Shown here piece by piece: positions 12,044-57,111 of a stretch of 64,000 bases of DNA. The number at the start of each line of letters is the position of its first letter. Within the stretch, counting starts at the first letter, position 1. The position numbers and the translations under genes are program-made. The stretch is from a virus (Duplodnaviria; Heunggongvirae; Uroviricota; Caudoviricetes): IMG/VR virus record IMGVR_UViG_2778261161_000002; one strand, written 5' to 3'. The notes under the pieces were generated by a model. It did no database searches. It was not told the DNA's origin and worked only from the letters and a program-made list of their open reading frames with translations.

Positions 12044-15000
12044 TTGGACAAACTACTTCATTCAATCAGTGAAGCCTCCAGCTTAGGCGAACTGATTGAA
12101 ATTGTTAGTCGGTTGCATAAATTACGTGCTGTTGCGACCTTTGGCGTCAGGAAAGCCGATGGCGTCAGTATTCAGAAAACACGCCGGGCAGCAAACAATG
12201 CCGCAGTAAATCTTCTTAATTCCCTTCCGCCCGGCTTCGATGGGGCGAAATTAACTGACGAACAACGTCAGATTCTTGCTGGGTATACCGGTGAAGGCGG
12301 CCTGACAGATGGTGAGGGCAGCCAATACGAATACTACACGCCACAGTTTATGGCTGAAGGTATATGGGATCTGTTTGCTGACTACGGTATTGATGGCGGG
12401 CACGTACTGGAACCATCAGCGGGCACAGGTATTTTCCAGGAGACAAAACGGCAGGGCATGATAATGACCAGCGCCGAACTGTCTCCGATTTCTGGTCGAA
12501 TAAACCAGCTTTTGCACCCGGAAGACGATGTGAATATCGGGGCGTTTGAGGCGCTGGCGGCGAAAGATGCAATGTATGACCACGCTGTTGGTAACGTACC
12601 GTTTGGTGAAGGGCGTTCCGGCGTTGCCGGGCTTGATCCGGCATATGCAAACGAGAAGAACGTTGGCAATTACTTTGTGCTGCGCACGATCGACAAGGTT
12701 AAGCCTGGTGGGCTTATCGTATTGGTGGTGCCAAATGGCATGACCGATGGTACGAAATATAAAAAATTGCGCGATAAAGTCAGCCGTAAAGCGGAATTTT
12801 TGGGCGCGCATCGTATGCCTTCCGGTACGTTCAGTGAATCAGGTACAGATACCGTGGTGGACGTATGGGTATTGCGTAAACACCCGGAAGCCTTCCTGGA
12901 GATGATCCCCGATACGGATGATTCGACGCTCAAATCGGCAAACGTCCTTTGGGATACCTTCCTCAAAGGAAAATGGTTTACAACCGAAGGGAAGCGATTT
13001 GTTTACGGCGACATGGAACGTACCAGCTTCCGCAATACCCTGGTGGTGAAAAAAGACGGTCGTGTATCCAATGAGTCGATGAAAACCGCGCTATCTCGTC
13101 GCTTTGATAGTCGCATCAATTGGGATTTGCTCGGCGTAACTACTCAGGCATGGCAGGGCGCGAAAGTGGGCGATAAACGCCTTGTAGGCGGTATCTGGCA
13201 TGAGTTTGATGGTCTGAAATGGGTTAAGGACACGACAACCAAATCCTCCGCGCTTGATGTAAGTCGATATGGTGTTTCGACGTTTGGCGATCTGCAGATC
13301 GCGTTCCAGTCAACAAACGGGATTCTGGCTTTGTCATGGGACCAGATATCGGCGATCGCGTCCGACTATCCATCGGTTGTCAGTGATGAAGTGGCAGCAA
13401 TGATTCGCTTTGCTGGCAAGCAGCGAGAAAAAGACAGGGAGCGCGTTATGCGCGGTGCACTGATAGGTCAGTTGATCAACAAGGCACTTGATTTGCGTAA
13501 CCTGGGGGTGAACGTTGATGACAAACTGGCAGATGCATCCCGCCTGGCGGCAGCAGAAGTTGCGAAGTATGGACCACCGCACGCGATTAAGCTGAATGGG
13601 CTTGCTGAAGCTGGCGCTAAAAACTGGATGACGTTCACTGGCAATGTGAAACAGGATGGTTCCACTTCTGACCTTCTGGCAGGGCGACTTGATGTAACGG
13701 ATGGTGCTGCCGGTATTGACTTTACGCGTCCTGAACAAGTGATAGCACATCTTTTTAGTGATGTAGCCCTTAATCCTATAACGCTGGGCGACTTTCGTGA
13801 GGCGTTTGCTGGTGAACTGCCAGAGGACGACGACGCGGCCCTTGAATACCTGGCGAAATTTGATGATATCGCTATTGATGGGTATGGCTGTCTGCTGCCG
13901 ATGGACCGCGCCACCAGCGGCGATGTTGCAACCAAAACAGCACTGCTGGTGGGTTGGCGTGATGCGTCAACAGGTGAGCAGAAAGCGAACTTTGAGCGTC
14001 AGTTGGCGAAAATCGAAGAGAAACGCATTTTCACGCCACTAAATAAAGTCACCGTTAATCTGAACGCCCGCTGGCTGGATCGCCGCTTGATAAAAGAGTT
14101 CCTGGCAGAGCAGGGCTATGACGAGTTTAAGTACACTGAACCTGATCTGAAGGTCGTCGATGGCATTCTGGTATCTCCGGACGATTACGAAGGTAAGGAC
14201 GGGGTATTTACCGGCTATCAGCTACGAACCGTAAACGGCAAAAACGGGAATGAGTTCAAGAAGGCCAACAATAAAGACGGCTTCCTGAACCAGTTAGAAA
14301 ACTACCTGAACGGTGTTAAACCGCGTGGGCAGAACGCTAACGAGTACCTGGATAAAATTGCTCAACTGGAAGTTAGCTTTAACGACTGGTTACGCACTCA
14401 CCCGCAGGCTGATCAGATAGCCCGCGAGTATAACGACGCATTCAATGGTTTCATTCCGTTCACGCATTCTGACGCACCGCTTGGCCTGGAAGGGATTAGT
14501 GGAAAGCGCATTCCTCTGACTTATCAGAATGAAGAAGTTCGGCGCTTGTCAGAAGATGGGCGCGGCATCATGGGATTTGGTACCGGGCTGGGTAAAACCA
14601 CGACCGCGCTTGCGCTTGAGGCGTATAACTTCGAAACAGGTCGCACTAAACGCACGTGTATTGTTGTTCCGAAGGCGGTTTATCAGAACTGGTATCACGA
14701 GGCACAGAGTTTCTACAGTGCTGATGCCTTCGCCAATATGATGTTTATCGGTTTGGATGAAGTTCGTGATGACAGCGGAAATATTCTGACCGCGCCGGTG
14801 CTTGATGAAAATGGCGAACCACGCCTCGACAGTAACGGGCAGCCTCTTACCAGAAATGTTGTGAAAGAGTCCGCCAGCGCCGTTATCGTTCAGCGCATGA
14901 ACATGATCCCGTCGTCAAATTGGCGAACGGTCATCATGACAAAAGAACAATTCGCGTCTATCCCGCTACGAGAAAAAACCATCGAGGAGAACTCACAGCA

Positions 15001-18000
15001 AGCTGTCTTTAATGCTGTGGAAATGGGGCGTCTTGACCTGGCGTCTGGCAAACACCGTGATGCACAGAAGAAGAACAAGATTAAGGATCAGGCCGCGAAT
15101 ACCGGTACAACGAAGAAGCAGAATATCCCGTACTTTGAGGATATGAACTTCGATAGCGTGATTGCCGACGAGGGGCATAACTACCGCAACTCCTTTAATG
15201 CCGGGCGTGAAGCGGGACAACTGGCATATTTGCCTAACCCGGCAGTATCCAAGATGGCCCGCGACATGGCTGTAAAAGCTGCGTACATGATGAAACGCAA
15301 CAACGGACGTGGTGTAGTCATGCTGACGGCAACTCCGCTGGTGAACAGTCCGATTGATGCCTTCAACATGCTGTCTACTGTCATTCCGCAGGAAGAGTGG
15401 ATGCGCATGGGCATCATTACGCCTGATGATTTCGTTCGTGTGTTTGGCAAAACAGCCACAGTTCAGGTCCAGAAAATTTCCGGGGAAGTGGAAGAGAAGC
15501 AGGGGCTGGTGGGCTTCCAGAACCTTGATGGCCTGCGTGGTATTTTCCATCGTTGGACCACTCTGAAGACTGCCGCAGATGTCGGAGCGACGGTTAAAAT
15601 TCCCGACATCATCGAGAACACCTTGCAGATCCCGATGACAGGGGAGCAGGAGTCTGCTTATGAAGAACTTCGTAAGCGTGCTCAGGAGTTAAGTCGCAAT
15701 GATGAGCTGACAGTCGATGAAAACGGGCATATCACTAACGACAAACCGGATGATTTCATCTTCTCCATCATCCGTGACATGGACAAGGTTGCTATAGACC
15801 CGGATCTGTATGCCAGTGCGATTACATTCCAGTTCCCCGTTGAGCTTGCAGACCAGGTAAAAGCTATTGCTGATGCCTTGCCAAAAGTAGCTGGTGGTAA
15901 AGTGGCAGATGATGTTGATGAGGCCGAGGAAGACGGCGCTGGCGGGCTGGTCAGTACGCGTACCAGCAAGGTAGTGAAGACCGCTTTTAGTGAACATCCG
16001 ACGCATGTTGAAATACGTGCCAGCATTGAACTGGAAGCTGAAATACTGAAGGCCATTGCGGCTGCCGGTATTGATATGCAGCAGGTATCGCACCCCATCC
16101 CGCCGAAGTATGCCGCGCTGATCGAAAATCTTCGTGAAGGTCTGAAGAACGGTAAGCAGATCGTCTTTATTGATGAAAAAGCCCAGCACCAGAAGCTGCG
16201 CCGTATTATCGCCAGTGCACTGCAAATGCCGGAGCAGGAGATTGGCATTATCAATGCGACGACAGTTAGCCAGGCTGGCGGCATCAAGCTGAAGAAGGTG
16301 AATAAGCCGACCGAACCTACTCCAAACAAAAACGGTGAATACAAAGAAGGGGCATGGGAAACCTACTACAGCAAACTTGCCCAATATGAGGATTATCTCT
16401 CAGCTAAAAATGATGCTGGCCTTGAGGGCATGGAAGGTATTGCCGCCGACTATAACGAAGGTCGCACGCGCATCATAATCTGTAACAAGAAGGCTGAAGT
16501 AGGTATTAACCTGCACATCGGGACAACCGATATCCACCACCTGACACTACCCTGGACACCAGCCAGTATCGACCAACGAAATGGGCGCGGTGCGCGCATA
16601 GGTTCACCGCAAGAGAAGGTCAATGTTCACTACTATTGTGGCAAAGGCACATTCGACGACTTCCGTCTGGATACGCTGAAACGTAAGAAAGACTGGATCA
16701 AGATGGTGATGACCTCCGACATGTCAGAGATCGCCAATGGTGATGTGGATGATGCTGATGAACGCGCCATTATGCTGGCGGCAAACCCGGAAGAACGCCG
16801 CGCAATCATGGCTCGCCAGGCGCAAGAGCGTGAAGAACGTCTGAAACTGAAAGCACAGCGCGAGGCCAACAATGCTCTCGATATCTACCTGAAAGCGGCA
16901 AACGCCGCCGGAAAAGATATCGGCATGATGGAGACAGAACTGAAAAGCGCGATGGAACAGATAGAGTATTACCAGCGCAATCTTGACGACCTGATAAAAG
17001 CGGGTACGAACAGGAATGGGCAAAAATACGCGCTTGAGCAGTTGAGTAGCTACAGAAAACGTGCGCGGGTGCTGCGGTTTGCGATCACCAGGGCAAAAGA
17101 CGCGGATACCATAATGAAACGCTCTCGTGGTGATGTGGAGCGCGCTATTAAGTCTGGTGTGCTGGATATCAGTATCGATGTTATTCAGAACCCACAGGAA
17201 TATATGCGCACTGACAAGAATATCCTGTTGCATAAAGGTAGTTATTACCGTGCAGTCATTGATGATCGCGAAACAACAGCGATTGTCCGGGTGGAAAAAA
17301 TTGACGGTGAAAAAGCACAATACATCTGTCGTATCGCCTGGCTGGATAGAGCAAGTCGTTACGCTCGATCACCGGGGTCAATCGTTACATTGCCGTTTGA
17401 CTCTGTGATTGAAGCGGTAACTTTTGAAGAGGGGGTTGCTGAATCGCGCGCAACGGCTGCGCGTGGTGTTCAGTGCCACCAGCTATCAACAATACTTACT
17501 CGCGATCAGTTCTATGATGCTATTCGCAATGGGGTAATGAATGTTATTGCTGGTAAACCTGGTAATGCATGGGGCGGTGGATCAGCTATTAAATACTGGG
17601 CATATCGCACAGAAGATGGTCAGATCGCGCTGTCATCGGCCTATGATGGCGTGATAGGCCAAAAAATCGGGCGAGCATCGGATATAGCACCTGAACGATG
17701 GATATATCCTGATGGCAACGACGAGGCGCTGAAGCGTGAAGTGGCAAAAATACAAGCCAGTGATAACCCGCTGAATATCGTGGACGGAGAGGGATTCCTC
17801 CAGGCATTGTATGGGTATGATTACATCCAGGGAATGCAGGCATGGGGCGCACAGGCAACGATGGATGATGTTGCCAAGGAGTTCGAAAACTGGATGGCTG
17901 GGCGTGGTCTGTCAGGTCGTTCGCTTAATAAAGTCACTTCTGAAGATATTCTTAGCTTGTTCCGTAAACCGTCCGGAGAAGGTCTGGAATCATTCTGGAG

Positions 18001-18880
18001 GACCGTGCTGGCATACCGTTTATTCCAGGGCAGGATGAAAGCCTTTAGCAATATCGATGATATTGAACGGATGTTTAATCAGGTCAAGATCGCGAAAATT
18101 AAGGCGAAGATCGAAAAAACACGTTCTGCGCTGGTGGCCTGGCGCGATGCATTGTTTGAGCAATATAAATCACTCAGTGATGCAGATGGATGGGCGGCGC
18201 TGGAACAGTTGGCGAATAATGGGGTAGATGGGGCGAAACTCGCCATTGTCCAGGCTGATAACCCCCTGGAATCACCGGCAGCACAGTGGATTAAGGTGGG
18301 GGCTGTCATCAATGCATTTGATGAAAAACACATTAGTAAGGACGATTTTGCTGATGCTGTTTCTGTTAATCGCCTGGTAGAAATGGCTACCCGCCGCGCC
18401 CGTGAGTTGAAAGATGGCGACTATGTGAATGAGTTGCCGGATACGCTCAAATCGGCAACGTGGCAGGACTATGTATCGCTGAAAAACGGCGGGGCCACTG
18501 AATCAGAGATCGCGGAAAGGCTTGAGCAGGCTGAAAGCAAAAGAGAAGAGCAGGCGGCAGTGGCTGAAGCCAGAGCTGATGAAGCGGCAAATGATGACTA
18601 TATCATTGTGGTTAATGATAAGCCTATTCGCGCTAAGGCGCGTGTTCGCGGGCGCTGGTGGAGCGTCAGCGAGGACGTTGGCGCGGTTTATCTCATTGCC
18701 GACCAACCAGGTTCCTCGACAATACGGAACGCCAAAGACGCGATTAAGAAGATTGGCGGGCGTTTCTGGAATTTTGAAGTGAATCCGGTCGCGGATGTGG
18801 ACTTTGACCGTCCGGCGTGGATGGTATCTACGCGTTACTCGGTAGATGAACTGCGTAAAATAATCGCCGATGCGGCTTAA
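12044..18880 (+). CDS. darB: DarB-like methyltransferase-helicase giant protein
   Basis: 2278 aa; N6-adenine MTase motifs (LEPSAGTGIF, NVPFGEG) then SF2 helicase motifs (GTGLGKTTTALA, DEGHNYRN, TATPLVNSP, QRNGRGARIG). Confidence 0.8.
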   Translation: MDKLLHSISEASSLGELIEIVSRLHKLRAVATFGVRKADGVSIQKTRRAANNAAVNLLNSLPPGFDGAKLTDEQRQILAGYTGEGGLTDGEGSQYEYYTPQFMAEGIWDLFADYGIDGGHVLEPSAGTGIFQETKRQGMIMTSAELSPISGRINQLLHPEDDVNIGAFEALAAKDAMYDHAVGNVPFGEGRSGVAGLDPAYANEKNVGNYFVLRTIDKVKPGGLIVLVVPNGMTDGTKYKKLRDKVSRKAEFLGAHRMPSGTFSESGTDTVVDVWVLRKHPEAFLEMIPDTDDSTLKSANVLWDTFLKGKWFTTEGKRFVYGDMERTSFRNTLVVKKDGRVSNESMKTALSRRFDSRINWDLLGVTTQAWQGAKVGDKRLVGGIWHEFDGLKWVKDTTTKSSALDVSRYGVSTFGDLQIAFQSTNGILALSWDQISAIASDYPSVVSDEVAAMIRFAGKQREKDRERVMRGALIGQLINKALDLRNLGVNVDDKLADASRLAAAEVAKYGPPHAIKLNGLAEAGAKNWMTFTGNVKQDGSTSDLLAGRLDVTDGAAGIDFTRPEQVIAHLFSDVALNPITLGDFREAFAGELPEDDDAALEYLAKFDDIAIDGYGCLLPMDRATSGDVATKTALLVGWRDASTGEQKANFERQLAKIEEKRIFTPLNKVTVNLNARWLDRRLIKEFLAEQGYDEFKYTEPDLKVVDGILVSPDDYEGKDGVFTGYQLRTVNGKNGNEFKKANNKDGFLNQLENYLNGVKPRGQNANEYLDKIAQLEVSFNDWLRTHPQADQIAREYNDAFNGFIPFTHSDAPLGLEGISGKRIPLTYQNEEVRRLSEDGRGIMGFGTGLGKTTTALALEAYNFETGRTKRTCIVVPKAVYQNWYHEAQSFYSADAFANMMFIGLDEVRDDSGNILTAPVLDENGEPRLDSNGQPLTRNVVKESASAVIVQRMNMIPSSNWRTVIMTKEQFASIPLREKTIEENSQQAVFNAVEMGRLDLASGKHRDAQKKNKIKDQAANTGTTKKQNIPYFEDMNFDSVIADEGHNYRNSFNAGREAGQLAYLPNPAVSKMARDMAVKAAYMMKRNNGRGVVMLTATPLVNSPIDAFNMLSTVIPQEEWMRMGIITPDDFVRVFGKTATVQVQKISGEVEEKQGLVGFQNLDGLRGIFHRWTTLKTAADVGATVKIPDIIENTLQIPMTGEQESAYEELRKRAQELSRNDELTVDENGHITNDKPDDFIFSIIRDMDKVAIDPDLYASAITFQFPVELADQVKAIADALPKVAGGKVADDVDEAEEDGAGGLVSTRTSKVVKTAFSEHPTHVEIRASIELEAEILKAIAAAGIDMQQVSHPIPPKYAALIENLREGLKNGKQIVFIDEKAQHQKLRRIIASALQMPEQEIGIINATTVSQAGGIKLKKVNKPTEPTPNKNGEYKEGAWETYYSKLAQYEDYLSAKNDAGLEGMEGIAADYNEGRTRIIICNKKAEVGINLHIGTTDIHHLTLPWTPASIDQRNGRGARIGSPQEKVNVHYYCGKGTFDDFRLDTLKRKKDWIKMVMTSDMSEIANGDVDDADERAIMLAANPEERRAIMARQAQEREERLKLKAQREANNALDIYLKAANAAGKDIGMMETELKSAMEQIEYYQRNLDDLIKAGTNRNGQKYALEQLSSYRKRARVLRFAITRAKDADTIMKRSRGDVERAIKSGVLDISIDVIQNPQEYMRTDKNILLHKGSYYRAVIDDRETTAIVRVEKIDGEKAQYICRIAWLDRASRYARSPGSIVTLPFDSVIEAVTFEEGVAESRATAARGVQCHQLSTILTRDQFYDAIRNGVMNVIAGKPGNAWGGGSAIKYWAYRTEDGQIALSSAYDGVIGQKIGRASDIAPERWIYPDGNDEALKREVAKIQASDNPLNIVDGEGFLQALYGYDYIQGMQAWGAQATMDDVAKEFENWMAGRGLSGRSLNKVTSEDILSLFRKPSGEGLESFWRTVLAYRLFQGRMKAFSNIDDIERMFNQVKIAKIKAKIEKTRSALVAWRDALFEQYKSLSDADGWAALEQLANNGVDGAKLAIVQADNPLESPAAQWIKVGAVINAFDEKHISKDDFADAVSVNRLVEMATRRARELKDGDYVNELPDTLKSATWQDYVSLKNGGATESEIAERLEQAESKREEQAAVAEARADEAANDDYIIVVNDKPIRAKARVRGRWWSVSEDVGAVYLIADQPGSSTIRNAKDAIKKIGGRFWNFEVNPVADVDFDRPAWMVSTRYSVDELRKIIADAA

Positions 18881-48849: not shown

Positions 48850-49428
48850 ATGCAGAAACAGAGCTATTGGGAGAAACAGAGACAAAAAGCCATGCAAAAA
48901 TTGGCTGACCCAGCCTGGCGAGAGGAACAAAGGGCAAAGCGCCTTCAACAAGCTCAACGCCAGCAGCAGCGAGCGAGAGAAAAAGCCGCATCGCCTGAAT
49001 ATCGGCAAAAGAAAATTGAAAAAGCAAAGCAATATGAACAGCGGAGAAAAGATAAAGCTGTATCCGCTCCGCCCAAAAAAACACGCACGTCACGCGGCCT
49101 GAAGGGCAGATCACTCACAGCCGATGAACGCCGGATACAGACCGCTATCGGTACTCTCCCCTGCATTGCCTGCCATATTCACGGGCAACATAGCCCAGTG
49201 GTATCCCTGCACCATATCTTCGGGAGAACGGCAGAGAACGCACATAAATATGTCCTCCCTTTGTGTAAATGGCACCACCAGTACGCAGCGCCAGCCGAGG
49301 TCCGAGAACAATATCCCTGGCTGGTCCCTGTTCATGCTGATGGAAAAATAGGCGGAAAAGCAGATTTCATACGGCACAATGCCGATGAAATGGCGTTGTA
49401 TCAGATGGCGATTGAATTAATAAATTAG
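48850..49428 (+). CDS. ref: Ref-like HNH endonuclease (recombination enhancement function)
   Basis: 192 aa; basic N-terminus and C-terminal GLKGR...LPCIACHIHG...SLHHI...WHHQ.AAPAEVRE.YPWLVPVHADG matching P1 Ref as recalled. Confidence 0.8.
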   Translation: MQKQSYWEKQRQKAMQKLADPAWREEQRAKRLQQAQRQQQRAREKAASPEYRQKKIEKAKQYEQRRKDKAVSAPPKKTRTSRGLKGRSLTADERRIQTAIGTLPCIACHIHGQHSPVVSLHHIFGRTAENAHKYVLPLCKWHHQYAAPAEVREQYPWLVPVHADGKIGGKADFIRHNADEMALYQMAIELIN

Positions 49429-49446: not shown

Positions 49447-49759
49447 TGAATTGTAAATTTCTCCGATGTACATTCACTACCGATTGGCACACCGGTCAAC
49501 TTTTTGAGACAAACTGTTTAGTTTTTCGTATTATTGCCCCCGCCATACCTATGGCGGTGCAATATAGGTGGCTGAAAAGCCCCCGTTGACTCACGGTGTT
49601 CCAGCCTTTATTGCGCCGCCACCAGACCGTGGAACAGTCGATGGCGGCTCCGAAAGCAAGGAGTCACTACACTATGAACAACTACAGTCTTTTCCCATCA
49701 CTCGTCGTCCACCACTCACGCGATAATCTGCATTCTTTATTCGCGCTGGGGGAGTCAAA

Positions 49760-49927: not shown

Positions 49928-50094
49928 AATACTGACTGTTGCGCCCTGGCATTATCGTGGGGTATATTTCTACGGCACCTTAGAAAAACGGGTGCCGGGA
50001 TTGGAACCCCGGATAATGCAAAAGGCGACACAGACGCCGAAAGCGTCTTTTCTTGTGTCATGCCATCGCACAGCCATACGTAGCGTTTAGCTCA

Positions 50095-50215
50095 GAGATC
50101 AATGGTAGTGCTGGCTGGGCTGCCGAAAGGCAGGCCGGTTCCCTTTTGCGCCGGTAGTTCCAACCCAGTCAGTGCTACCGCCATTGAGATTGGAACCTCA
50201 CGCGGTAGCTCCTTA
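50095..50215 (+). ncRNA. second c4-like antisense RNA region (distinct specificity)
   Basis: GGTAGTTCCAACC (50152-) complementary to repeated GATTGGAACC elements at 50000 and 50189; same layout as 10030-10240 with different sequence. Confidence 0.35.
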
Positions 50216-50239: not shown

Positions 50240-50455
50240 ATGGCTACTATCCCTACCCCAACTCATTCTGAATTTATCTGGCGTTTCTATTCCTGCCAAA
50301 AACACCTGTATATCTGCGTCATGGCTGCAACCGAAGCAGAAGCTCGTTCATACCTTCCTGAAGAACCCTGCATTTTTGCCGCACGCTTCACTCTTGATGC
50401 GATGGAGATCCTCAATTACTGGAATCTGCCAATGAACTGCGTGGAGGTGCACTGA
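50240..50455 (+). CDS. icd: Icd-like small protein (copy 2)
   Basis: 71 aa; paralogue of 10246..10470. Confidence 0.45.
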   Translation: MATIPTPTHSEFIWRFYSCQKHLYICVMAATEAEARSYLPEEPCIFAARFTLDAMEILNYWNLPMNCVEVH

Positions 50456-51396
50456 TGAATCTGTCCATCTCTCAAAAAGCGACAATGACCAGCATTGAGA
50501 TCGCGGAACTGGTAGGAAGTCGCCAAGATAGTGTGAAGAGAACTATCGAAACACTGGCTAAAAAGAGTGTGATCCAATTTCCACAATCTGTGGAAATTGA
50601 AAATAAACAATCAGTTGGCCCTCGTCGATTTTCCAAGGCTTACATCTTTGAAGGCGAACAAGGCAAGCGCGATAGTATCATTGTCGTCGCACAGCTCTCT
50701 CCGGAATTCACCGCCCGGCTGGTGGACCGCTGGCGCGAACTGGAGAATGCCAGGGGACCGTTAAAATCAAAAGCCGAAATCCTGGCTGAAATGGCGCAAA
50801 TGCATCTTGAGCATGAACGCCGGATCAACGCCGTAAATGCCCAGGTAGCCGAGGTATCAGCACAAGTATCGATGGTCGCTGAAACACTCGAGCAAATAAA
50901 GAAAGGCAATATGCCGGAAGGCTACATTGGCTACCGCCAGCTGGCGGCGAAATGCGGCCTGACTGAAGCCAAATGTCGCAACCTGGTTAACGCTTACCGG
51001 ATACCCACTGATACGCATGAGTTTTTGACTCCCGACGGTTTGCTTGCGCGACGCTCAATTGTGGCCCTGGCCCCCTTCCGGAAAGCCTTTAAGCAGGTTA
51101 TGTCGGAGGCAGAACCACGCAACAAACGCTGGTATCATCCAAAGATGGGGATGTTTCAGGCAATCCACCATCCTGTGCCTGAAAGTCCAAAGGCAAACCT
51201 GTCGTTGCATACCGCCAGAGAGAGGATTAAAACAGGGTATGCAATCGTATGCCGTCGAGCATCTTGGCCTGAAGGTGTATGGGTATGGCCCGAAGGTGGA
51301 TCACGAAAGCACTGGCGCACTATCCGGGATGGGAAAATCCATGCGATTGATTTAGCTCCAGAGGATGTTGTTGCTACGGACTGGATTGTTAGTTAA
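50455..51396 (+). CDS. ant: Rha-family antirepressor-like regulator (copy 2)
   Basis: 313 aa; N-terminal and central regions nearly identical to 10470..11177, different C-terminus. Confidence 0.55.
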   Translation: MNLSISQKATMTSIEIAELVGSRQDSVKRTIETLAKKSVIQFPQSVEIENKQSVGPRRFSKAYIFEGEQGKRDSIIVVAQLSPEFTARLVDRWRELENARGPLKSKAEILAEMAQMHLEHERRINAVNAQVAEVSAQVSMVAETLEQIKKGNMPEGYIGYRQLAAKCGLTEAKCRNLVNAYRIPTDTHEFLTPDGLLARRSIVALAPFRKAFKQVMSEAEPRNKRWYHPKMGMFQAIHHPVPESPKANLSLHTARERIKTGYAIVCRRASWPEGVWVWPEGGSRKHWRTIRDGKIHAIDLAPEDVVATDWIVS

Positions 51397-51404
51397 TTAC
51401 TGTT

Positions 51405-51426
51405 GCCCCGGCCTGTCCGGGGCTTT
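51405..51426 (+). terminator. intrinsic terminator-like hairpin
   Basis: GCCCCGG-CCTGT-CCGGGGC then TTT; same design as 11383-11407. Confidence 0.5.
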
Positions 51427-51455: not shown

Positions 51456-51740
51456 ATGAAGAAAATAGATTTCACTTACTCTGCTGCCACAATCCAGCGA
51501 CGTTTCAGTCTCATAAGGGAAGTGGAACTATCAAAAAACTGGTATCAAATTCTACTGGATGAAGAGTTTTCACTGATGGTTATAGCAGAAAAATTGGCTA
51601 TGCCGAATGACCGGCACAAGGTCATAGCCAGCCTGGATCTGGTGACAAACAGATACTGGGAATCCGAGGAACTACTTGAAGTTGGCTTGATACGCGAGAT
51701 GATAGAACAGGCTGTTCCCCTCCACTTACAGCAACCATAA
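51456..51740 (+). CDS. hypothetical protein
   Basis: 94 aa ORF. Confidence 0.4.
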   Translation: MKKIDFTYSAATIQRRFSLIREVELSKNWYQILLDEEFSLMVIAEKLAMPNDRHKVIASLDLVTNRYWESEELLEVGLIREMIEQAVPLHLQQP

Positions 51741-51876
51741 TTGAAAGGTCTTAACGATAGTCTGCCACGAATAGTTACTTTCACTGCCTAAAGTTATTTA
51801 ATTGCATTACAAAGTGTAAATTAGTAACATTAGAATCTCACACAGCACTATAACTATATGTTTTTTATGTAAAAGG

Positions 51877-52236
51877 ATGATAATCGTGGCTACTAAAATT
51901 AAACTTGAAAACCCTCAAACTGGCGAATCAATCACCGGTTTTTATGGTTTTTCCTGGACTACATTCTTGTTTGGTGCTTTTCCAGCTTTGTTCAGGAAAG
52001 ACTTTATAACTTTTATTGGGGTATTCGTAGTGATGCTGATACTGGCATTCCTCACAGCCGGAATTGGCCCGTGGATTGCCTCATTTATCTGGGCGTTCAT
52101 GTATAATAAATATTTCACCGTAAATAAGATAAAACAAGGCTTCATTTTTGCTGGTTCTCACACAGAAAATGAGTTGGCTGCTAGCAAGCTAGGATTGTCA
52201 TTAAATCAAAACAACTGCAAAACTATTACCGAGTAA
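51877..52236 (+). CDS. two-TM inner membrane protein (DUF2628-like)
   Basis: GFYGFSWTTFLFGAFPALFRKDF motif and two hydrophobic helices; AT-rich; start may be GTG 51886. Confidence 0.45.
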   Translation: MIIVATKIKLENPQTGESITGFYGFSWTTFLFGAFPALFRKDFITFIGVFVVMLILAFLTAGIGPWIASFIWAFMYNKYFTVNKIKQGFIFAGSHTENELAASKLGLSLNQNNCKTITE

Positions 52237-52276
52237 TAGCCAAAAAGCAGGCTTAATAGTAAGCCTGCTATGTCAA

Positions 52277-53098
52277 TCACGAATCTCTCTGACAATTCAG
52301 AAACATAAACGCCCGCTTGTCTGTTAAATCCGTAACATAATACTCTCTCATGCCTGTAGGTTTTATTCTACGAGCATATACAAACTTATGAACTGGTTGT
52401 TTTTCCCCATAACTTACATCAGTCCTAAATTCATCAACCACGCTACCATCTTTTTCGACTTCCTTCCTCACCAGCTTATTTTCTAATGCTGGCTTTAATT
52501 CGTCCATGCCACTAAAAGCATCCTGGCCTGTACTATTGCCTCGATTTCCGCGCGGCAAATCCCAGGAGAAATAAGTGCCATAGTCAGTAATCACACGATC
52601 CCAGACTCCGGTATCCCCCATATAGTTAGAGCGCTTTCCATTGTAGGTTACAGCCACTTTACAGGAGTACGTTTCTTCATTCCCTCCAGCCTTACTCGCT
52701 GTGGTTGCAGGGATATTTTGGATAGATGCGCTTACGTCATCTTGCGTTAATTCCTCAACTGGAGCAAATTCATATATGGGTGTGCCGAGGCTATTTAAAT
52801 ATAACTTATATCTAACCCTAAGCGCACTTCCATCTGAGAATTCATACGTTCCCAGGCATTGGAGCTTATTTTTTTCTCTTATCTCATTGATCTGATTATA
52901 AGCATCAATTACAGAGATTGCTTCCTGATCGTCCTTCAGCAGTTCATTATAATCATCAATTAACATCTGTCTGGTTTTAGGGGCATTGCAGTCAATTTTG
53001 CTAAAATCATAAGCAAAGGCAAATGTGGGAACAGAGAGAGCAACAACAGTAGCAAGTATTGTTGAGGAACATCTTTTTCCATTTTTTATAAAAAACAT
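52277..53098 (-). CDS. secreted protein of unknown function
   Basis: 273 aa from Met with GGAG RBS; signal peptide ending AFA; AT-rich. Confidence 0.45.
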   Translation of the reverse strand: MFFIKNGKRCSSTILATVVALSVPTFAFAYDFSKIDCNAPKTRQMLIDDYNELLKDDQEAISVIDAYNQINEIREKNKLQCLGTYEFSDGSALRVRYKLYLNSLGTPIYEFAPVEELTQDDVSASIQNIPATTASKAGGNEETYSCKVAVTYNGKRSNYMGDTGVWDRVITDYGTYFSWDLPRGNRGNSTGQDAFSGMDELKPALENKLVRKEVEKDGSVVDEFRTDVSYGEKQPVHKFVYARRIKPTGMREYYVTDLTDKRAFMFLNCQRDS

Positions 53099-53393
53099 TT
53101 CATTAACTCCATACTTTACCATCTTAGCCGCGAGCGCGGTCCCTAAAACCATTAACTTCACTGCACCGTTCCTTCATGCAATCAAAATGACTTTTATGTT
53201 ATAAAAATAATCAGCCAAATCAACATGATTTAGGCCAAATTTCTGTCAAAAAATAAAATCCACAAAAAGTGGTTGACACTATTTTGGAAATCACAAACTG
53301 CACATAATCCATCGCGCTAACGGCTCCCGTTGAAGGTTCTTTTGACGATTAACTTTCAGCCGAAGCGCGGTAGGGAGTCATAACGCCAAAGCA

Positions 53394-53417
53394 GGCCGCC
53401 ATGTGCGGCCTTTTTTT
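53394..53417 (+). terminator. plus-strand intrinsic terminator
   Basis: GGCCGC-CATGT-GCGGCC followed by TTTTTTT, 28 nt before the 53445 start. Confidence 0.65.
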
Positions 53418-53444
53418 GTATCCGTCATCCGTGGAGGAAGGACA

Positions 53445-54098
53445 ATGGAAAAGATCGCAATATTCAGCCTGACCACCAGCAAGCCTCAAATGCTCACTGC
53501 AATACTGAAAGACGGTGCTCTCATTATTAACGAAGTAAAACCCCTTCCCGCGTCAGCATTGGAGCAAAAGCAAAAAATTCCTCCAGCTATAGCAGCCCTG
53601 CGGAAAAGCAAATTTAAGGTACTGGTAGACGAAATTACGCCAACGATCTCCGCTGGCACCGGAGCAAGCCAGGTGACTCTCAAGACCCGTCATGCCGATG
53701 GCAGAGCAGCAATCATCGTCGGGATGGAGAGATACAGAGAGTTAAAACTCCAGAAGCTATTATCCCTGCCGCAAAATAACAAAGGTGCTTTCGAAATCCC
53801 CGACTCCATCGTTGACACCGAATACAACGGTAACGGAGAAGAAGTCTACCGGGTGAACTGGCAGGATATCAGGCCGGAACATATTCTGATGATCCTGTGT
53901 TGCTACGCGACCGTATACCACAACGTTGCCAGTGCAGATTACGTAGAGCAGATGACCGGTACAGTCGAGAAAGAGCAAAAAACAGGCATACTCGCTTCGT
54001 TCCTTTCCATTATTGGGCATGAAAAAGTTAAAGCAGGCACCTCCCAGCCAAAGTCACTGGCCGGGAAAGAAGTTGATGAAGATACCGTGATACTTTGA
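53445..54098 (+). CDS. hypothetical protein (tail-cluster position)
   Basis: 217 aa from Met with GGAGGAAGG RBS. Confidence 0.45.
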   Translation: MEKIAIFSLTTSKPQMLTAILKDGALIINEVKPLPASALEQKQKIPPAIAALRKSKFKVLVDEITPTISAGTGASQVTLKTRHADGRAAIIVGMERYRELKLQKLLSLPQNNKGAFEIPDSIVDTEYNGNGEEVYRVNWQDIRPEHILMILCCYATVYHNVASADYVEQMTGTVEKEQKTGILASFLSIIGHEKVKAGTSQPKSLAGKEVDEDTVIL

Positions 54099-54741: not shown

Positions 54742-55927
54742 TTTCCTGAAAAACCAGGACGGGCGCTATATCACTGACGGCCTGTCCTCTAAGGACTTCA
54801 CGCGTTTATTCGACCTTATCAGGAAAGAACAAACCCGTAAGCGCCGACAAGCTCACCGGACGCTGACGCCAGGTAGACTGAGGAACAAATCCGCCGAAGA
54901 TATTCTCAAGTTAGGGAAGAAAAAAGGCGGCACGTTCTTCACGCGAGACGACCTGAAAGGTTTCGAAAAGCTACGGAGTAAAACGCGCGAAAAATATGAC
55001 AGCAAGACGGCTGGCATCACATACGCCCAGCTGGTGGCATCCAGCCAGGCAATCGATATTAAGCGTGCAAATAACGCCGTGGATGACGGATCTGGTATCA
55101 AAAGAGCTACACCCGTATCTCTTCGCCACAATGTGATTAATATCCGCGTAGAAGCATCGGATATATCCGTCCACCAGCACCATATCGTCCGGATACGCTT
55201 TGAAGAATGGGAGCAGATGGTTGATGACATCGCAGAAGACGATAAATCAGCTCTCAAAATCACTAAATCACTGTGCGCCGGGCGAGTGTCTTTCGATTGT
55301 GACTGTGGTCGTCATCAATACTGGTATCGTTACATCGCCACTGCGGGTAACTTTGCCCTGGCACCGCCAAAAGAATACGCCTATCCAAAAGTTCGCAACC
55401 CGAAGCTGCAAGGCGTCGCCTGTAAACACGTGATCCACTCAATGACGCGGTTACAGTCCGCCAGTTGGCAAATGAGTATTGCTCGTGCGCTACAAAAGGC
55501 TGCAACGCAAATTGCATTTGGTGACGATCGCCGCCGTACAACCAAACACTTCTCAAAAGAAGACGAGAAGGAGTTTAATCGCAATCGTAGCAGTAAAACG
55601 AACGTTGAAGCCGCCAAACGCGAATGGAGGCTCTATCAGAAGCGCCAGGCAGCTTTAAGTACAAAACTGGCAAAGGACAACGGCAAGATCGACAAACTAC
55701 GTGACCAATTGACCAAGGCCAGAAAGTTGTCAGATGCACAGAAAAAACGGGCGGCAGCAAAAGAAGCGGCCTTGCAACGTGAGAAACAGAAAAACAAGGA
55801 GCTTCAGCAACGCCTTGCCGATCAGTTCGCACTGAAGAAGCAGGCGTTCATTGATGCGCTTGTCATGGCTGGAACACCACCAGCACAAGCTGAAAAAATG
55901 TTCATGGAGTATGTAAAAAAAGCATAA
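54734..55927 (+). CDS. SWIM zinc-finger protein with C-terminal coiled coil
   Basis: 397 aa; CxC...CxH arrangement (FDCDCGRHQ ... GVACKHVIH). Confidence 0.45.
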   Translation: MPDFLKNQDGRYITDGLSSKDFTRLFDLIRKEQTRKRRQAHRTLTPGRLRNKSAEDILKLGKKKGGTFFTRDDLKGFEKLRSKTREKYDSKTAGITYAQLVASSQAIDIKRANNAVDDGSGIKRATPVSLRHNVINIRVEASDISVHQHHIVRIRFEEWEQMVDDIAEDDKSALKITKSLCAGRVSFDCDCGRHQYWYRYIATAGNFALAPPKEYAYPKVRNPKLQGVACKHVIHSMTRLQSASWQMSIARALQKAATQIAFGDDRRRTTKHFSKEDEKEFNRNRSSKTNVEAAKREWRLYQKRQAALSTKLAKDNGKIDKLRDQLTKARKLSDAQKKRAAAKEAALQREKQKNKELQQRLADQFALKKQAFIDALVMAGTPPAQAEKMFMEYVKKA

Positions 55928-55960
55928 ACCACACATAGCCTAGCTGCCTAGGCTAGGCTT

Positions 55961-56689
55961 TCATCTTTTTGAAAAATCAATTTCCGTTTTATCAAATAAA
56001 TTTGAAATATCAGCAACCAATTTATTAAAATCATGATCGCCATTATAAAGCGAAGTCTTCTTTATTGCCATTACAAAATCATATAACTTTTCTGGGGAGT
56101 CAATACCAACCCCTCTACTTTTAAAAAGCTCAATGATAACTCCAACATCATCATATAATAACTTTATTGCCGCCATAATCTCTTTTTGCTGCCTAAGCAA
56201 TCTCTCAAGTTCATTTTTATTTTCATCCATAATTCTTTTGTTGAATTGTGTATCATTAATACTTTTTATTATTTCAGTCTCTTTTATTTGCAACGCCTTT
56301 CTTTTATTTTGATCCATGTCGGCATCCAAATACCTTATCTCTGTATATATTTTACTTGTTAGCTTTGATACGCAAAGAGTGACAATCGGAGCTGCAATTG
56401 ATGCAATAATTCCAAAAATAAATGGCAAGCAAAAATGATAAAGCCAAGGAGACAAAACGCCTTCATAAACTAGAGGAATCTTACCTCCAACAAATGTTAC
56501 AGATAAAGTATATAGGATATCATCCTTTGACTTCATCAATATTAGTATATCTTTCCAATTAATAATTAGAAAAGAAATTAATATATATGCAAACACTTTA
56601 TTAAAAAGCTTGTCTTTTATGGCATCTCCAAAAGATACTTTTATTAGATCATTTTCAGTCAATTTTTCTGTTGATGAATCTGTATTCAT
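55961..56689 (-). CDS. AT-rich two-TM membrane protein with long helical C-terminal domain
   Basis: 242 aa; TM helices about residues 33-53 and 80-105; very low GC; no family recognised. Confidence 0.6.
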   Translation of the reverse strand: MNTDSSTEKLTENDLIKVSFGDAIKDKLFNKVFAYILISFLIINWKDILILMKSKDDILYTLSVTFVGGKIPLVYEGVLSPWLYHFCLPFIFGIIASIAAPIVTLCVSKLTSKIYTEIRYLDADMDQNKRKALQIKETEIIKSINDTQFNKRIMDENKNELERLLRQQKEIMAAIKLLYDDVGVIIELFKSRGVGIDSPEKLYDFVMAIKKTSLYNGDHDFNKLVADISNLFDKTEIDFSKR

Positions 56690-56751
56690 ATAAACTACCG
56701 TGATTTCTAATATCTATTTTATGAAAATAGCGGTCATCCAGACCGCCAAAC

Positions 56752-57111
56752 TCAAATACCAACCAAGCTTTCAAGAGGAATGCCAAACTGGGAATGTAAA
56801 CGGCGAATCATAGGTAACGTCAAATTTCGTGTCCCATTTAGCACTTCGTAAACACGATTTGACTTACCAATCGCCGGTTCCAGATCCTTCACGGTCAGCC
56901 CTTGCTGTTCCATACGGAATTTAATGGCCTCAATAGGTGATGGTGGCTCAATTGGGTAATGTTTTTTCTCGTACTCCTCAATGAGAAGACTCATAACCTC
57001 AAAGAAATCACCTTCCGGAGTATTCATTTCCGGTTCGTTATCGAACATCGGTTCGACCGCACGCAGTGCGGCCTCATAATCTTGTTCTGTACGGATAGGT
57101 TTAATGTTCAT
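56752..57111 (-). CDS. HigA-family (COG5499-type) HTH antitoxin-like regulator
   Basis: 119 aa; C-terminal GLTVKDLEPAIGKSNRVYEVLNGTRNLTLPMIRRLHSQFGIPLESL parallels E. coli HigA. Confidence 0.6.
   Translation of the reverse strand: MNIKPIRTEQDYEAALRAVEPMFDNEPEMNTPEGDFFEVMSLLIEEYEKKHYPIEPPSPIEAIKFRMEQQGLTVKDLEPAIGKSNRVYEVLNGTRNLTLPMIRRLHSQFGIPLESLVGI

Follow-up and report, generated by a model that had tools for sequence, protein, structure and literature searches.

A two-gene accessory cassette for a predicted membrane protein and an exported SimB-like fusion protein beside the immunity region of a D6-like phage-plasmid

Introduction

The sim operon of bacteriophage P1 (simA-simB-simC) was described in the 1980s; it is divergent from c4, beside the immI immunity region, and its products are signal-peptide proteins. 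According to the references quoted in a later paper, sim causes superinfection exclusion (Kliem and Dreiseikelmann, 1989, cited in PMC8546580), and the Sim protein is processed, resides in the periplasm and excludes incoming phage once adsorption has taken place (references in PMC8546580). We found no later mechanistic work on the operon in the literature searched. A comparable logic is known from phage T4, in which a small membrane protein (Imm, in the inner membrane) and a signal-peptide protein (Spackle, in the periplasm) act together against incoming phage as it crosses wall and membrane, Spackle by inhibiting the gp5 tail lysozyme in the periplasm (PMC7677548, PMC11436027). In this work we describe a locus that invites comparison with both. 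It lies at positions 51456–53161 of a 64,000-nucleotide stretch of Caudoviricetes DNA (IMG/VR record IMGVR_UViG_2778261161_000002; the whole stretch is referred to as the window), and it likewise encodes, next to an immI region, an exported protein with a SimB-like domain (p273, for its 273 amino acids, aa) together with a small membrane protein (p116).

An earlier note on this DNA had treated the region as an AT-rich moron of three genes with envelope-targeted cargo, of the kind associated with superinfection exclusion or lysogenic conversion. As an anatomical description, what we find is with high confidence a different arrangement, namely one backbone gene, a homologue of P1 pmgF, followed by an accessory envelope cassette of two genes. 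The functions that the earlier note had in mind seem plausible for this cassette by virtue of its location, its export signals and its analogy to P1 sim and T4 Imm/Spackle, and an envelope-level block to incoming phage is the one toward which we tentatively lean.

Results and Discussion

A backbone gene and a two-gene cassette between ant and mat

The flagged region aligns at 96.6% over 3.8 kb with Escherichia phage D6, a phage-plasmid related to P1. A 100% match is found in the E. coli plasmid pE2863-2 and in several further plasmids of roughly 92 kb; among 5,426 complete E. coli genomes all of the matches are plasmid-borne and none is chromosomal. We read the window as a D6-like (P1/D6-type) phage-plasmid. 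D6 itself (NC_050154 / MF356679) has these three genes, arranged and oriented alike between ant and mat. Its annotation names them orf81 (“similar to P1 pmgF”), orf80 (hypothetical) and orf79 (“similar to P1 simB”); mat comes next, and then the baseplate genes 26 and 25. The flagged genes of the window are located directly downstream of the immI immunity region (c4-icd-ant), and the coordinates of all features are given in Table 1.

The base composition of the region is unusual for the window, with a guanine-plus-cytosine (GC) fraction of 0.397 over 51456–53161 against a mean of 0.475 (standard deviation 0.028 over windows of 1706 bp). A value this low is reached in only 2.6% of windows of that size, all of them within the flagged stretch or in a second island at about 55200–57000; by part, the GC fraction is 0.385 in the p116 gene, 0.403 in the p273 gene and 0.30 in the intergenic stretch. 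The low-GC stretch that the earlier note placed after the antirepressor terminator is therefore confirmed, as are its three open reading frames (ORFs), of 94 aa (51456–51740, +), 119 aa (51877–52236, +) and 294 or 273 aa (52277–53161 or 52277–53098, −), each of which has homologues. The last of these does encode the signal peptide attributed to it, which is of the Sec type with a basic n-region (MFFIKNGKR) and a hydrophobic core.

Where the earlier description fails is in counting the 94-aa gene as part of a moron. Its product is a PmgF homologue with 97.9% aa identity to D6 orf81 and with relatives restricted to D6-like elements of about 90 kb, and the gene is still there in a relative (L006) whose downstream cassette is a different one. 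Because it is kept despite this swap of cassettes, we regard the gene as backbone of P1/D6-type phage-plasmids and not as cargo, so that the description as envelope-targeted, low-GC cargo holds for p116 and p273 and not for the 94-aa gene. The NCBI label “transcriptional regulator” for the 94-aa protein finds no support in Pfam or NCBIfam. The position of the gene is not that of P1, where pmgF closes the bplB-pmgG late operon, coming after bplB, whereas here the homologue comes after ant.

Comparative genomics, which the earlier note had proposed as a check for presence and absence, indicates that the other two genes are accessory. D6-like backbones were counted as plasmids in PLSDB that carry mat-26-25 at a coverage of at least 80% (116 plasmids); the p273 gene was found in 56 of these and the p116 gene likewise in 56, with the same accessions in both sets, and the remaining plasmids have other cassettes. 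The alternatives include a pair of secreted proteins of 202 and 130 aa (L005, L006) and a helical N-terminal domain fused to the same C-terminal barrel as in p273 (altN::barrel; L004, L030–L032). The p116 gene accompanies barrel genes with either type of N-terminal domain (L032 being the altN::barrel case), and among the loci examined it was never seen with the cassette of 202- and 130-aa proteins. A related observation has been made in Salmonella, where a D6-like prophage carries a simB homologue without simA or simC and the region is substituted in a sister element (PMC6799933). From these comparisons we take the slot between the immI region and mat to be a recombination hot spot that holds differing secreted-protein cassettes.

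This distribution bears directly on whether the cassette is an accessory of the element's own lytic cycle, contributing for instance to lysis timing, to envelope remodelling for release or to injection, and expressed late with mat and the tail genes. It is true that the cassette sits between pmgF (“putative morphogenetic function”) and mat with the baseplate genes 26 and 25, and that homologues of p116 occur in strictly lytic jumbo phages. However, the cassette is missing from about half of the near-identical D6-like elements, which carry unrelated secreted proteins instead, the p273 gene is transcribed divergently from mat, and a pattern search for the P1-type late promoter found none before the p116 or p273 genes. 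In P1, moreover, simABC are dispensable for lytic growth, as is pmgF, which is non-essential by CRISPR interference (PMC10695390). A lytic-cycle role consequently seems quite improbable to us.

Table 1. Features of the cassette and its borders in the window (aa, amino acids; nt, nucleotides; pLDDT, predicted local distance difference test score; dS, synonymous divergence).
Feature	Positions	Strand	Basis and remarks
Rha-family antirepressor ant (D6 orf82), left border	50455..51396	+	Pfam Phage_pRha E 3e-6, weak; D6 label “anti-repressor Ant”
Intrinsic-terminator-like hairpin (GCCCCGG/CCGGGGC), then TTT, after ant	51405..51426	+	Sequence; RNAfold -15.0 kcal/mol
94-aa PmgF homologue (D6 orf81)	51456..51740	+	42% identity over 74 aa to P1 PmgF, E 1e-14; phrog_7349
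Candidate weak sigma-70 promoter for p116 (TTGCAT, 17 nt, TAACAT)	51802..51830	+	Read from sequence; 8/12 matches, under scan threshold; tentative
p116, small inner-membrane protein, predicted (D6 orf80)	51886..52236	+	Alignment of 27 relatives with MATKI start, Shine-Dalgarno; ORF extends upstream to ATG 51877
10-bp hairpin common to the convergent p116 and p273 genes	52246..52269	.	Terminator scan; RNAfold -15.3 and -15.9 kcal/mol
p273 C-terminal beta-barrel domain, aa 143-273; invariant Cys146, Cys269; motif YFSWDLPRGNRGNSTGQD...HKFVYARRIKPxGxREYYVTDLT...FLNC	52280..52672	-	
p273 low-complexity linker, aa 117-142	52673..52750	-	pLDDT <50; dS 0.54 vs D6; N-domain swaps here
p273 SimB-like domain, aa 30-116, conserved Cys C37 and C81; predicted helix and four-stranded sheet, cystatin-like	52751..53011	-	
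p273 Sec signal peptide, aa 1-29, cleavage AFA|YD	53012..53098	-	ATG start, GGAG at 53107-53110, 8 nt upstream; PHROG profile aligns from this Met
In-frame remnant, 21 codons; 5' end of a gene for a 202-aa secreted protein	53099..53161	-	GTG start 53161; AAGGA ribosome-binding site 53170-53174
Candidate sigma-70 promoter for the p273 gene (TTGATT, 16 nt, TAACAT), common to relatives with the 202-aa gene	53196..53223	-	Relaxed scan, 8/12 matches; conserved in L005/L006; tentative
mat (maturation control) homologue, right border, divergent from the cassette	53445..54098	+	D6 annotation; 99.5% aa identity to D6

A SimB-like domain fused to a rare predicted beta-barrel

Following the signal peptide, residues 30–116 of p273 align with the entire P1 SimB, both cysteines included (BLASTP, 46% identity over 112 aa, E 2e-27). 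The signal peptide shares in this homology. Neither BLASTP nor profile comparison gave any similarity of the remaining 155 residues to SimC or SimA, and no SimA homologue was found at the locus by these two methods. The gene organisation differs accordingly from that of P1. There SimB is a protein in its own right, of about 110 aa, and its operon is divergent from c4, while here it is fused to an unrelated barrel of 131 aa, and the fusion gene is paired with that of a membrane protein, downstream of ant and divergent from mat.

The barrel domain spans from one invariant cysteine to another that is four residues from the end of the protein, and it contains an invariant G-x-R-G-x-S-x-G loop. An AlphaFold2 model of this domain built from the family alignment is confidently all-beta (pLDDT 85.7, predicted template modelling score 0.81); the model of full-length p273 is poor (pLDDT 57.8), and only the SimB domain was used from it. 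The predicted folds are those of a cystatin/latexin-like head and a small closed barrel, which are resemblances of fold at 3–14% identity and not family memberships, and no sequence relative of the barrel was found in the PDB. The mature protein, of about 27 kDa, has four cysteines that make up one conserved pair per domain, an arrangement that would suit disulfide formation in an oxidising periplasm.

Proteins of this kind are rare. Relatives of p273 fall into only 11 clusters in a search of 5.8 billion proteins, and when 1.84 billion representatives were searched exhaustively with a profile, 32 proteins were recovered, 24 of which are stand-alone SimB-like proteins (56–189 aa, most about 100–120 aa) and the rest of which have the C-terminal barrel alone or behind other N-terminal regions. 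The invariant cysteines and motifs hold across relatives that are 39–97% identical. The barrel family is nearly confined to D6-like phage-plasmids (17 of 17 IMG/VR loci), with a single locus in 185,579 reference genomes. This sole relative, in Buttiauxella massiliensis NZ_LR722668.1 (the neighbourhood spans L033 1525–10325), is found between type I restriction-modification genes (hsdS, hsdM) on one side and an ankyrin-repeat protein and phage-type integrase on the other, a setting that looks like a defence-island-like integrative element and gives a modest extra hint for exclusion. As a side observation, the family also has a second location: in L007 a helical-head::barrel gene comes directly after a PAAR cluster equivalent to that of pE2863-2, which outside the window (L015 566–2227, 5280–5564) carries a full-length glutamine-tRNA ligase (glnS) and, next to parM, a PAAR-domain protein.

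Cystatin/latexin-like and small closed-barrel folds include periplasmic or secreted protein inhibitors, for example PliC and PhiA, a resemblance that we count in favour of the envelope-level block discussed below. A rival reading takes lysogenic conversion or host fitness as the purpose of the cassette. In it p273 would work in the periplasm as a binding protein or an inhibitor, its targets being for example colicins, type VI secretion system effectors, or lysozymes and proteases of the host or of competitors, and p116 would be independent cargo. The signal peptide and conserved cysteine pairs of p273 would agree with such a role, and so would the accessory distribution among plasmids from gut and food-animal isolates. 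Nevertheless, identity to the PliC/MliC/PhiA-type inhibitors and to other calycin-like barrels (the Cap15 barrel, nitrobindin) is 7–14% and the family motifs appear to be absent; the SGSGA-type motif that is conserved in PliC and MliC was not seen in p273 by inspection, and, unlike these inhibitors, the p273 barrel has an N-to-C cysteine pair closing it, together with an invariant loop of its own. A general fitness factor would also be expected to have spread more widely than a barrel almost limited to D6-like phage-plasmids, and the homology to the P1 sim operon points to phage-phage interaction, so that a host-fitness role seems unlikely to us.

The 5' end of the p273 gene retains a trace of another cassette, since the reading frame stays open upstream of its ATG to a GTG at 53161. 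In a DNA alignment with L005 and L006, conservation extends from the promoter region past this GTG for about 12 codons, beyond which the sequences diverge; in relatives with the shared GTG it begins the 202-aa secreted protein. An intact 202-aa gene is present upstream of SimB::barrel in L008, L020, L028 and L029, and because this order persists in relatives we interpret the window as carrying a deletion derivative in which 53099–53161 is the leftover of a different gene. The choice between GTG 53161 and ATG 53098 would be of no consequence for the mature protein, which should be identical after cleavage. D6 annotates the longer ORF that starts in the remnant, and the second domain is not noted there. 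For the 202-aa protein, hidden homology to SimC was considered and rejected by BLASTP and hhalign.

The membrane protein p116 and its relatives

The start of the membrane protein seems well placed by two lines of evidence. All 26 relatives start with MA(T/V)K, and the AAGGA Shine-Dalgarno sequence (51872–51876) is 9 nt ahead of GTG 51886, yet abuts ATG 51877; since both the N-termini of relatives and the spacing fit the GTG, the protein most likely begins there and has 116 aa, as annotated in D6. It is 100% identical in aa sequence to D6 orf80, belongs to phrog_4915 and contains the conserved motif GFYGFSWTTFFFGxFPALFRxDF...WAFMYNKYYT. Its hydrophobic pattern consists of a moderately hydrophobic segment (aa 16–36), a basic RKD loop, a strongly hydrophobic segment (aa 40–59) and a short third segment (aa 60–73), and because one relative tolerates a charged insertion of 35 residues between segments 2 and 3, this junction is probably a loop.

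The earlier note had called this product a DUF2628-like protein with two transmembrane segments. That it is a membrane protein agrees with our analysis, but the hydrophobic pattern allows two to three helices and not a clean pair, and membership in DUF2628 (PF10947) was rejected in a Pfam test of p116 and 27 relatives, with no Pfam match for p116 even at E ≤ 10 and DUF2628 matches for only 4 of the 27 relatives, at E ≥ 0.21. The likeness lies in the size of the proteins and in a first hydrophobic segment that is rich in Gly, Phe and Trp and leads into a basic loop, and some relatives are labelled DUF2628 in UniRef. DUF6693 matches more of the relatives (9 of 27), but even the best of these matches (E 5.8e-4) passes no threshold.

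The p116 family is broad and extends to jumbo coliphages (about 55% identity), to Lactobacillus phages and, as stand-alone chromosomal genes, to Enterobacterales (Pantoea, Cedecea, Mangrovibacter), Burkholderiales (Duganella, Janthinobacterium) and alphaproteobacteria. Identity to the chromosomal genes of Pantoea, Cedecea and Mangrovibacter is 69–73%, and the neighbourhoods of chromosomal relatives that we examined have no conserved partners.

Selection and recombination at the locus

The ratio of nonsynonymous to synonymous divergence (dN/dS) for the p273 gene is 0.16–0.22, with 0.22 for the window against D6, and by domain it is 0.15 for the barrel, 0.24 for the SimB-like domain and 0.31 for the linker. 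Since these values correspond to purifying selection, the gene is expected to be functional. Against D6, dS of the p273 gene is 0.20, compared with 0–0.03 for pmgF, the p116 gene and genes 26 and 25, and 0.09 for mat. The excess over the flanks argues that p273 alleles are exchanged by recombination, and the allele in the window, 90.6% identical in aa to D6 orf79, is recombinant relative to D6. The linker is the most divergent part of p273, and we take it to be the recombination joint between the two domains. The neighbouring ant gene shows a similar excess, with 87.5% aa identity to D6 (L001 6056–6997) and a dS of 0.29, where icd, pmgF and the membrane-protein gene around it are at 97–100%, and so ant is itself a swapped allele.

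These values are also relevant to whether the two genes are simply unrelated hitch-hikers, p116 being a generic enterobacterial membrane protein and p273 a decaying fusion formed in a hot spot, with their co-occurrence due to linkage only. The stand-alone relatives of p116 in Pantoea, Cedecea and Mangrovibacter are what one would expect in that case, and the gene remnant at the 5' end of p273 and the occurrence of barrel proteins without p116 are in keeping with it. A decaying gene is difficult to reconcile, though, with purifying selection on both domains of p273 (dN/dS 0.15–0.24) and with the invariance of its cysteines and motifs across such divergent relatives; p116 for its part is 99–100% conserved in 47 of the 56 plasmids, and its linkage to the barrel persists across two types of N-terminal domain and across alleles of 85–100% identity. 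We accordingly consider it doubtful that the pair are mere passengers.

Regulatory signals

The hairpin shared by the convergent genes would be a good terminator for the minus-strand gene, with a TTTTTGG tail, but for the plus-strand gene it lacks a T-tract. A P1-type C1 operator was not found near the cassette, the best matches (13/17) being elsewhere, one of them at 49411 upstream of the c4 region. A AAATGACTT box is present upstream of mat, without a proper TANNNT -10 element after it.

A possible envelope-level block to incoming phage

Our preference, held tentatively, is for an envelope-level block to incoming phage, because the cassette combines a small membrane protein with a modular exported protein, occupies a slot beside the immunity region, is absent or replaced in half of the relatives and has precedents in P1 Sim and in T4 Imm and Spackle. 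Such a block would act after adsorption, at cell-wall penetration or DNA entry. In the periplasm, p273 would bind either a host entry factor or some part of the infecting particle, and p116 would act at the inner membrane. In this reading the two genes would be expressed in the lysogen, and their products might be functionally coupled. The comparison to T4 is one of analogy, as no relationship to Imm or Spackle was seen in any sequence or fold search. Spackle is helical, in contrast to the cystatin-like head and beta-barrel predicted for p273, and Imm and Spackle are expressed early in lytic infection and not from a prophage.

There are several points that weigh against this preference. No homologue of SimC, the only P1 sim protein with demonstrated exclusion, was detected (E 0.84 by BLASTP; 0.06% probability when the barrel profile was compared with SimC in hhalign). 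None of the three proteins had a meaningful match in Pfam, NCBIfam or PADLOC, and no defence-system profile matched (matches to Lactamase_B_2, E 0.003 and below the cut-off, and MTase_II, E 0.012, were dropped as noise). The p116 family consists mostly of a stand-alone chromosomal gene in diverse Proteobacteria, outside any phage context, and is also found in lytic jumbo phages. The co-occurrence of p116 and p273 may reflect physical linkage and common descent, as barrel loci without the p116 gene exist (L004, L008, L030, L031), and the candidate promoters are weak consensus matches only.

A further point concerns Sit, the injection transglycosylase, as simB and sit are the two regions that diverge between two Salmonella elements (PMC6799933). 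Among 48 plasmids chosen as a spread sample, which are non-independent and include clonal repeats, 14 of the 19 with the sit allele of the window carry the cassette, as do 12 of the 29 whose sit alleles diverge (Fisher p = 0.04). A tight coupling was rejected, as the cassette is found with both alleles and the association is weak and phylogenetically confounded, and we place no weight on it.

A more specific form of the envelope-level block can be imagined, in which p116 and p273 make up a modular, two-component “periplasmic gatekeeper.” The conserved, disulfide-closed barrel would serve as effector or anchor together with p116, the swappable heads (SimB-like or helical) would be specificity modules for different phages, and the slot as a whole would be a diversity-generating exclusion locus. 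We offer this form as speculation, and in all its parts it is rather unlikely.

Neighbouring features

To the right of the cassette, the 172 nt directly 5' of mat (53273–53444, +) are identical in four elements with differing cassettes and contain a terminator-like hairpin at 53393–53411 (+; −15 kcal/mol) with a U-run just ahead of the mat ribosome-binding site. Rfam has no match for 53273–53444, which could be a leader or attenuator or a small RNA. Between mat and gene 26 some relatives carry a higB/higA (RelE/ParE-type) toxin-antitoxin pair (L006 4660–5231; NZ_CP122510.1) where the window has intergenic DNA only, which makes this a second insertion hot spot nearby.

The lowest-GC island of the 64-kb window (GC 0.29) is formed by an ORF of 242 aa at 55961–56689 (−), corresponding to D6 orf73, which in D6 adjoins a regulator and a toxin-antitoxin pair. 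In its product, hydrophobic segments at the N-terminus give way to a coiled-coil-like region; the protein belongs to phrog_8191 (unknown function), with no match in Pfam, NCBIfam or PADLOC, and we regard this ORF as a stronger moron candidate than the flagged region. In the immI region to the left, Rfam models identify a C4 antisense RNA at 50098–50185 (+; 76.7 bits) upstream of icd and ant, an isrK-like RNA at 49975–50053 (+; 59.4 bits) and a weaker second C4-like copy at 49547–49626 (+; 40.2 bits, under the gathering score). A 2278-aa ORF at 12044–18880 (+) is near P1 DarB in size.

Conclusion

The locus itself is not new, as its genes are deposited and loosely annotated in D6. The two-domain architecture of p273, the rarity and modular reuse of its barrel, the upstream-gene remnant, the exact co-distribution with p116 and the alternative cassettes are absent from the D6 annotation and from the literature examined. 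If the cassette were to have no anti-phage activity, it would be merely an annotated hypothetical gene pair already in the D6 genome.

E. coli and Salmonella of people and food animals commonly harbour P1/D6-type phage-plasmids. Some of these elements carry resistance genes, and the rules by which they co-infect or displace one another are poorly known. In this context the present analysis describes SimB as a secreted domain that is portable and can occur as a fusion with a rare beta-barrel, the fusion travelling with a small membrane protein, and describes a locus that exchanges whole secreted-protein cassettes between near-identical elements. Should the gatekeeper arrangement prove true, it would provide the first functional handle on P1 SimB.

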